Shown here piece after piece: positions 28,395-28,473 of a stretch of 64,000 nt of DNA. The stretch comes from Octopus sinensis (lineage: Eukaryota). The notes under the pieces are model-generated. The model saw nothing but the letters and a program-made list of their open reading frames with translations. It was not told the origin of the DNA and did no database searches. The stretch spans positions 103,044,001-103,108,000 of the forward strand of contig NC_042997.1 in assembly GCF_006345805.1 (NCBI RefSeq), written 5' to 3'. The position numbers and the translations under genes were made by a program. Positions within the stretch are counted from its first letter, which is position 1. Each line of letters opens with the position of its first letter.

Positions 28395-28473
28395 CTAGCC
28401 ACAATTGCTACAGACAGGAATCGAAATGGTACAGCAGATCTGACAACAATATTTGCAAAGGAATGTAGAACAG
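28395..28473 (-). CDS. Candidate terminal coding exon encoding the Cys-rich peptide (x)CSTFLCKYCCQICCTISIPVCSNCG*
   Basis: Strong T-rich acceptor ...TTTATTTAG. The phase-2 frame has 8 Cys in 25 codons and ends Gly-stop. ATTAAA lies about 220 nt downstream (28174-28169). Confidence 0.55.

Follow-up and report, generated by a model that had tools for sequence, protein, structure and literature searches.

The question raised by this locus is whether a short cysteine-rich segment on the minus strand of a 64,000-nucleotide (nt) stretch of the Octopus sinensis genome (contig NC_042997.1, positions 103,044,001 to 103,108,000; hereafter the window, in whose coordinates positions are given) is the last coding exon of a peptide gene, as a sequence-only reading had proposed, and what such a gene would produce. 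The segment is probably a real coding exon of an orphan peptide. Our preferred explanation, to which we give a probability of about 0.4, is that it may be where the coding sequence of a single-copy, unannotated octopus gene ends, a gene for a secreted, amidated defence peptide with four disulfides, which would work like the Hamp2-type (antimicrobial) hepcidins while standing outside that family.

An eight-cysteine frame directly past a splice acceptor

On the minus strand, an AG acceptor at 28475-28474 is followed by a single spare base (28473) and by 25 codons (28472-28398) that read CSTFLCKYCCQICCTISIPVCSNCG, closed by a TAG stop at 28397-28395. The peptide carries eight cysteines, at positions 1, 6, 9, 10, 13, 14, 21 and 24, in the order C-C-CC-CC-C-C with loops of 4, 2, 0, 2, 0, 6 and 2 residues, and its last residue is Gly; its net charge is +1 and its hydropathy 1.05, and the monoisotopic mass calculated for an amidated four-disulfide form starting at the first cysteine is 2625.0 Da. 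Acceptors and donors were scored with two home-made matrices based on generic frequencies, and the acceptor ranked 11th of 3,525 minus-strand AG sites with one and 83rd of 3,527 with the other. The earlier description of a Gly-terminated, phase-2 frame with eight cysteines directly past a strong acceptor is confirmed. As control DNA, we used 159 loci (1,589,400 bases), from which the locus G000:C16:40867869-40867916 was excluded since it had been picked for its cysteine motif. Acceptors of equal strength are frequent on their own, with 284 cases in these 1.59 Mb. The ATTAAA downstream of the stop, mentioned in the sequence-only reading, carries no weight, because AATAAA or ATTAAA occurs in 2,512 of 6,534 control bins of 300 nt (38%). 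We also noticed a 72-codon open frame on the plus strand (28263-28478), antisense to the exon and in register with it, which stops at the (TAAA)n run and gave neither a Pfam match nor a homologue.

Searches at the DNA and protein levels found the segment in single copy in the genome; two further DNA matches of the exon region are limited to the T-rich tract. TGY triplets are distributed 8:1:0 among the three frames of the exon, and the segment is not a decayed TGY repeat or microsatellite, since its non-cysteine codons lie on average 1.94 changes away from TGY and its low-complexity score is 0.67. In Markov simulations, eight cysteines in 25 codons appeared in none of 60 windows and in one of 60; because genuine DNA contains more stretches of this kind, real control loci were used instead. 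Among the 1,821 control acceptors scoring 5 or more, none was followed by at least eight cysteines in non-repetitive DNA, the nearest being one with seven cysteines, in a cysteine run, and two with eight or nine, inside repeats. Regardless of acceptors, the control DNA holds 557 segments with at least eight cysteines per 25 codons, nine of them with a low repeat score. Depending on the tightness of the definition, the pattern is expected by chance 1.4e-5 to 1e-3 times per 64-kb window and 0.6 to 41 times per genome. In the 2.72 Gb of genome searched, the eight-cysteine pattern had 147 matches versus 280 for the reversed control and, among the 100 listed of these 147, the exon locus is by eye the sole in-frame, non-repeat one. 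No paralogues were found; the pattern searches gave mostly repeats, the reversed control being commoner in two out of three.

The proposal of a last exon thus gains statistical support from the control acceptors, but no backing from RNA or orthologues: no RNA was listed for 27700-28500, contigs of X4 and X13 gave none at the exon and X13 to X16 none at 40960-41970, blanks that are uninformative either way. A contig of X3 spans the exon, with 11 other letters and 14 gap letters in 743, at unspecified positions. As for the locus excluded from the control set, it holds a non-repetitive CC-x2-CC-x6-C-x2-C stretch on the plus strand, devoid of an obvious acceptor and probably due to chance.

Comparison with hepcidins and other cysteine-rich peptides

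The likeness to hepcidin was followed up on printed sequences. Teleost hepcidins (PF06446; sea bass, barramundi, tilapia, fugu, stickleback and seahorse) likewise have about 25 residues and eight cysteines, are encoded in the last exon and start with C-K/R-aromatic-CC; in particular, C-K-aromatic-CC is common to the octopus peptide and to fugu and stickleback HAMP2 (PMC9073008 supplement). Hepcidins span 19 to 31 residues and 2 to 3 kDa, a range that includes the mass of the octopus peptide, and fish forms with seven, six or four cysteines exist (PMC3978493). The hepcidin spacing is C-x2-CC-x1-CC-x4/5-C-x2-CC; sea bass Hamp1 and Hamp2 show C-x2-CC-x1-CC-x5-C-x2-CC, and the octopus peptide, read from Cys6 (the cysteine at position 6) as C-x2-CC-x2-CC-x6-C-x2-C, aligns seven cysteines with them by means of two one-residue insertions (PMC5665920).

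Furthermore, hepcidin genes have a pro-region exon of 72 to 78 nt (phase 0 to 0) ahead of the last exon, and a candidate of similar size, open in phase 0, lies upstream of the octopus one. The boundaries of HAMP2 exon 2 were inferred from the exon sizes of 87 and 78 nt reported for fish hepcidin genes (PMC3325200), and identities were counted by eye. The candidate exon at 41469-41398 (phase 0, 72 nt) aligns with the inferred HAMP2 exon 2 ungapped and with the 3' ends in register, sharing 8/24 residues with barramundi, 6/24 with tilapia hampII-2 (whose inferred exon equally has 24 codons), 4/24 with stickleback, 3/24 each with fugu and tilapia hampII-7 and 1/24 with seahorse (PMC9073008). The binomial P for at least 8/24 identities is 1e-5 to 4e-4, uncorrected, and 3.18 million codons of control DNA contain no instance of the shared core S-x-D-x-P-x3-H-x-E, against an expectation of 0.3; barramundi was selected as the closest among six sequences, the motif was defined post hoc, and some ten families had been looked at. 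Once the selection of sequence, frame and family is taken into account, our own estimate of the probability of such a likeness by chance is at the percent level.

Different from hepcidin, the octopus peptide ends with Gly and a stop in place of the last cysteine and has an extra N-terminal cysteine, and the RX(K/R)R cleavage site is absent from its exon. The last intron would be in phase 2 and up to 13 kb long in octopus, as opposed to an inferred phase 0 and 118 to 191 nt in fish, and the exon at 41469-41398 does not have the V-D-S-W end that is well conserved in the fish pro-region. Hepcidin genes have three exons, the first of which encodes the signal peptide; no credible signal exon was found for the octopus locus. 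The PF06446 profile matched neither exon at E values up to 10 when the exons were scored separately, and the exon locus is absent from the 18 genome matches to this profile. At the DNA level, the exon at 41469-41398 shares 29 of 72 positions with barramundi by eye (about 40%), and one serine belongs to a different codon family. As to the partner of hepcidin, three ferroportin loci were found (G000:C9:74977624-74992360, C8694:76159-77596 and C7755:276857-278286). The equivalent of primate Cys326 is named as key to hepcidin binding in sea bass, and the two octopus copies read at this position carry Asn (C9) and Ser (C8694), on account of which iron control of the Hamp1 type is disfavoured. The loci on C8694 and C7755 share their layout and appear compact and diverged.

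Among other families, conotoxin framework XI (I superfamily) has the same cysteine order as the octopus peptide, C-C-CC-CC-C-C (PMC7912261). The sequence-only reading had recognised no named family in the spacing, which is right for the loops (6, 5, 0, 3, 0, 3 and 6 in GXIA, of 32 residues and with an ICK+1 fold, versus those given above in 24 to 25 residues) and not for the order. The octopus peptide has no Pfam, PDB or fold match that would place it there, its fold model being weak. A second loop of two residues is short for a cystine knot. In the STa/guanylin family (PF02048), STh reads CC-x2-CC-x3-C-x2-C, and the last six cysteines of the octopus peptide read CC-x2-CC-x6-C-x2-C, with a Pro two residues ahead of the fifth of these cysteines in both (PMC3153297); compared with STa, the octopus peptide has two extra cysteines, a loop three residues longer and no receptor-binding Asn-Pro-Ala turn, and the PF02048 profile did not match at the exon locus. 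CCWamide likewise combines eight cysteines, amidation (which we infer for octopus) and a mature peptide encoded by a last exon with phase-2 entry (PMC8557429). The spacing of CCWamide, of the agatoxin-like peptides (ALP) and of CLCCY differs, with one CC pair and CxC motifs, and the octopus peptide lacks both the aromatic residue of CCWamide and ALP between Cys6 and Cys7 and their aromatic amide end (PMC8557429, PMC8398477); the split basic codon of this family was not found at the octopus locus. Since the membership features tested fail, we assign the peptide to none of hepcidin, framework XI, STa and CCWamide, and its cysteine spacing is not found in the families checked. Likenesses to CYSTM, MDFI, LITAF and the insulin A chain were set aside, as Pfam gives them no support.

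No homologue was found in word-based protein searches, in a search of 1.84 billion proteins, or in Atlas, Pfam and PDB. The queries for these three protein searches included 15 or 5 additional codons taken from the intron, and an exact self-match of the exon peptide scores just 45 bits, so that the 1.84-billion-protein search (E 0.001) rules out near-identical sequences only; the word searches are expected to catch any annotated identical protein. In the PDB search, the CxxCG end resembles zinc-ribbon knuckles at non-significant E values of 0.6 to 6.6, and the single-sequence model (mean predicted local distance difference test, pLDDT, 73; predicted template-modelling score, pTM, 0.28), a weak one, gave no fold match. 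The sole metagenome match, to the nine-codon core of the peptide, lies antisense to what by eye is a bacterial gene of the short-chain dehydrogenase kind (positions 856-882 of that locus), a case in which Thr/Ala-rich coding DNA yields a cysteine-rich antisense frame. The peptide was not met in the literature looked up, and the original reports on cephalopod venoms to which PMC4280546 refers may list such a peptide. A literature search with peptide words returned one unrelated paper; five such words are absent from the supplement of a paper on O. vulgaris salivary-gland peptides (PMC7693380), no peptide words occur in the searched supplement parts of PMC6425005 and PMC12343078, and word searches of PMC13518417 and PMC4890905 were blank.

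Upstream exons and the putative gene model

The exon at 41469-41398 is single-copy and has the best of 3,611 donors and a weak acceptor (rank 134-152). Its phase-0 frame begins right at the acceptor and reads as an acidic pro-region. The phase-2 frame would splice straight to the last exon, resembles a translated intron and has a low Atlas recognition (1272). Because this second frame joins directly, a linker from phase 0 to phase 2 is required solely with the first, and the earlier claim that a linking exon is needed holds for that frame alone. The candidate micro-exon (Table 1), if used, forces phase 0. Exon-like splice pairs of the quality of the micro-exon are also part of the background, with 14 on the minus and 11 on the plus strand in 264 kb. 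Nine open phase 0-to-2 linker candidates were found, two of which contain a basic motif and have poor splice scores.

Upstream of the last exon, the 13 kb consist mostly of sequence from long interspersed nuclear elements (LINE), DNA transposons and short interspersed nuclear elements (SINE). At the thresholds used, no credible signal-peptide exon emerged within 335 kb upstream, and signal-exon-like candidates arise as background at 2.2 per 100 kb. The best one in the window, at 47873-47825, was rejected, its donor coming from a decayed SINE head, as were the candidates at 109459 (a repeated stretch) and at about 219116 (a high-copy LINE). Isolated, well-scored exon candidates in unique minus-strand DNA occur, in window-equivalent coordinates, at 100435-100427 (9 nt), 152962-152905 (58 nt) and -4953 to -4985 (33 nt); they could be part of the peptide gene or background.

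Table 1. Candidate exons and associated elements of the putative peptide gene, in window coordinates
Feature	Position	Strand	Remarks
Candidate terminal coding exon	28395..28473	-	25 codons with 8 Cys and Gly at the end, after 1 spare base and before TAG
T-rich acceptor tract	28474..28562	-	no AG over 87 nt; (TAAA)n-like run on the plus strand
ATTAAA	28169..28174	-	220 nt past the stop, and again at 28103-28098; not beyond chance
Candidate pro-region exon, 72 nt	41398..41469	-	phase-0 frame hepcidin-pro-region-like; phase-2 frame also open
Candidate micro-exon, 19 nt	41924..41942	-	phase 2 to 0; acceptor rank 5/3,525
Candidate linker exon, 17 nt	40417..40433	-	phase 0 to 2; splice sites moderate, basic cleavage motif absent
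Alternative candidate linker exon, 74 nt	37904..37977	-	phase 0 to 2; weak donor
Candidate hydrophobic ATG exon	47825..47873	-	doubtful; donor is a decayed SINE head

It is possible to hypothesize the following route to a secreted defence peptide, every step of which lies beyond the exon sequence itself. The acidic pro-region exon would be spliced to the last exon through a short phase 0-to-2 linker, and a signal exon, not yet found, would lead to secretion. All eight cysteines would then pair in four disulfides, and the final Gly would be lost to leave a C-terminal amide. The product, compact and hydrophobic, would have a mass of about 2.6 kDa and a net charge of about +1 and would act on microbes or on a host surface target. 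By analogy with hepcidin, six cysteines may form the disulfides of its core, and the additional N-terminal cysteine may bond with Cys6, replacing the missing last one. The join between the two exons is putative, and it is indirectly supported by the fact that both resemble hepcidin.

Weighing the explanations

In favour of the defence peptide, we count the rarity of the pattern in the control DNA and genome-wide, the even number of cysteines, the Gly-stop, the hepcidin-like spacing and size, the likeness of the upstream exon to a pro-region and, against iron control of the Hamp1 type, the ferroportin residues. Several points weigh against it, namely the lack of homologues in the searches described, the unproven join to the upstream exon, the missing signal exon and the absence of a basic cleavage site ahead of the first cysteine in the better-scoring linker candidates, together with the low net charge and the hydropathy. 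Defence peptides often form families, and the absence of paralogues here points in the same direction. An unlikely though by no means negligible alternative is chance, that is, a non-coding stretch rich in cysteine codons after a (TTTA)n tract that happens to end in AG. The absence of any database relative is consistent with it, as are the nine non-repetitive cysteine-dense segments of the control DNA, the recurrence of the core antisense to the dehydrogenase-like gene and the surrounding 264 kb, which are repeat-rich and in which visual inspection of the top 45 open reading frames (ORFs) revealed no host gene; with loose definitions, the 41 events per genome correspond to 0.2 per 206 windows. 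The tight pattern is expected just 1.4e-5 times per window and 0.6 times per genome, the segment is not derived from a repeat, and the upstream exon, which had been named beforehand, resembles the pro-region of the same family as the cysteine pattern, all of which argues against chance.

The sequence-only reading had left the choice between toxin and defence peptide; of the two, the defence role offers the better account, and nothing favours a toxin over it. A venom peptide made in the posterior salivary gland, acting on prey ion channels or receptors like the framework XI conotoxins, is rather improbable. As is generally known, Gly-stop amidation is common in such peptides. The shared cysteine order (PMC7912261) and the possibly lineage-specific peptides expressed in coleoid salivary glands (PMC4280546) fit this explanation; the differing loops, with the second one short for a cystine knot, the lack of a Pfam match, the single copy and the salivary-gland supplement lacking the five peptide words (PMC7693380) do not. 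Improbable too is that the segment encodes the cysteine-rich, hydrophobic tail of a small non-secreted protein, serving in palmitoylation, membrane anchoring or metal binding. The absence of a signal exon, the hydropathy and the zinc-ribbon-like CxxCG end agree with it, and the direct phase-2 join provides an open path that has no signal peptide; on the other side, no Pfam domain of such a kind matches, and the upstream phase-2 frame is intron-like, with its low Atlas recognition.

That the octopus peptide is a true hepcidin homologue we regard as quite unlikely. In such a case, a diverged teleost HAMP2 would have reached cephalopods, most plausibly by horizontal transfer from fish, and would have been remodelled; this doubtful history would have kept the pro-region exon and the cysteine core, gained transposon-filled introns and acquired an amide and a new disulfide at the N-terminus in exchange for the final cysteine. 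The seven aligned cysteines and the register and rarity of the pro-region match speak for homology. Against it stand the PF06446 profile, the missing RXXR site, the altered first and last cysteines, the phase of the last intron, the lost V-D-S-W end, the low DNA identity with its differing serine codon and the post hoc selection of sequence, motif and family; in addition, hepcidin is reported from vertebrates only (PMC3325200).

If the secreted defence peptide is real, it would provide a compact four-disulfide scaffold, with a cysteine spacing unmatched in the families checked and small enough to be synthesised, in an animal for which the catalogue of defence and venom peptides is still poor. 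Should the link to hepcidin be one of homology, it would place hepcidin outside the vertebrates, to which PMC3325200 confines it, and would represent a rare case of an immune gene passing from one animal to another. If chance is the explanation, T-rich tracts and cysteine-rich noise can mimic peptide exons in the octopus genome.

Elsewhere in the window, a tRNA-Arg(ACG) gene lies on the plus strand at 54340-54413 (Rfam, 62 bits; ARAGORN). Decayed transposons were recognised by eye at 30500-35300 (minus), 38600-39340 (plus), 19370-21160 (plus) and 29700-30280, and comprise a LINE that includes endonuclease and reverse transcriptase, pieces resembling LINE ORF1, and hAT-like and Tc1-like elements. 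Finally, a (TG/TA)-rich repeat and its flank are duplicated in inverted orientation at 9950-10254 (minus) and 13482-13872 (plus), with matching translations on opposite strands.
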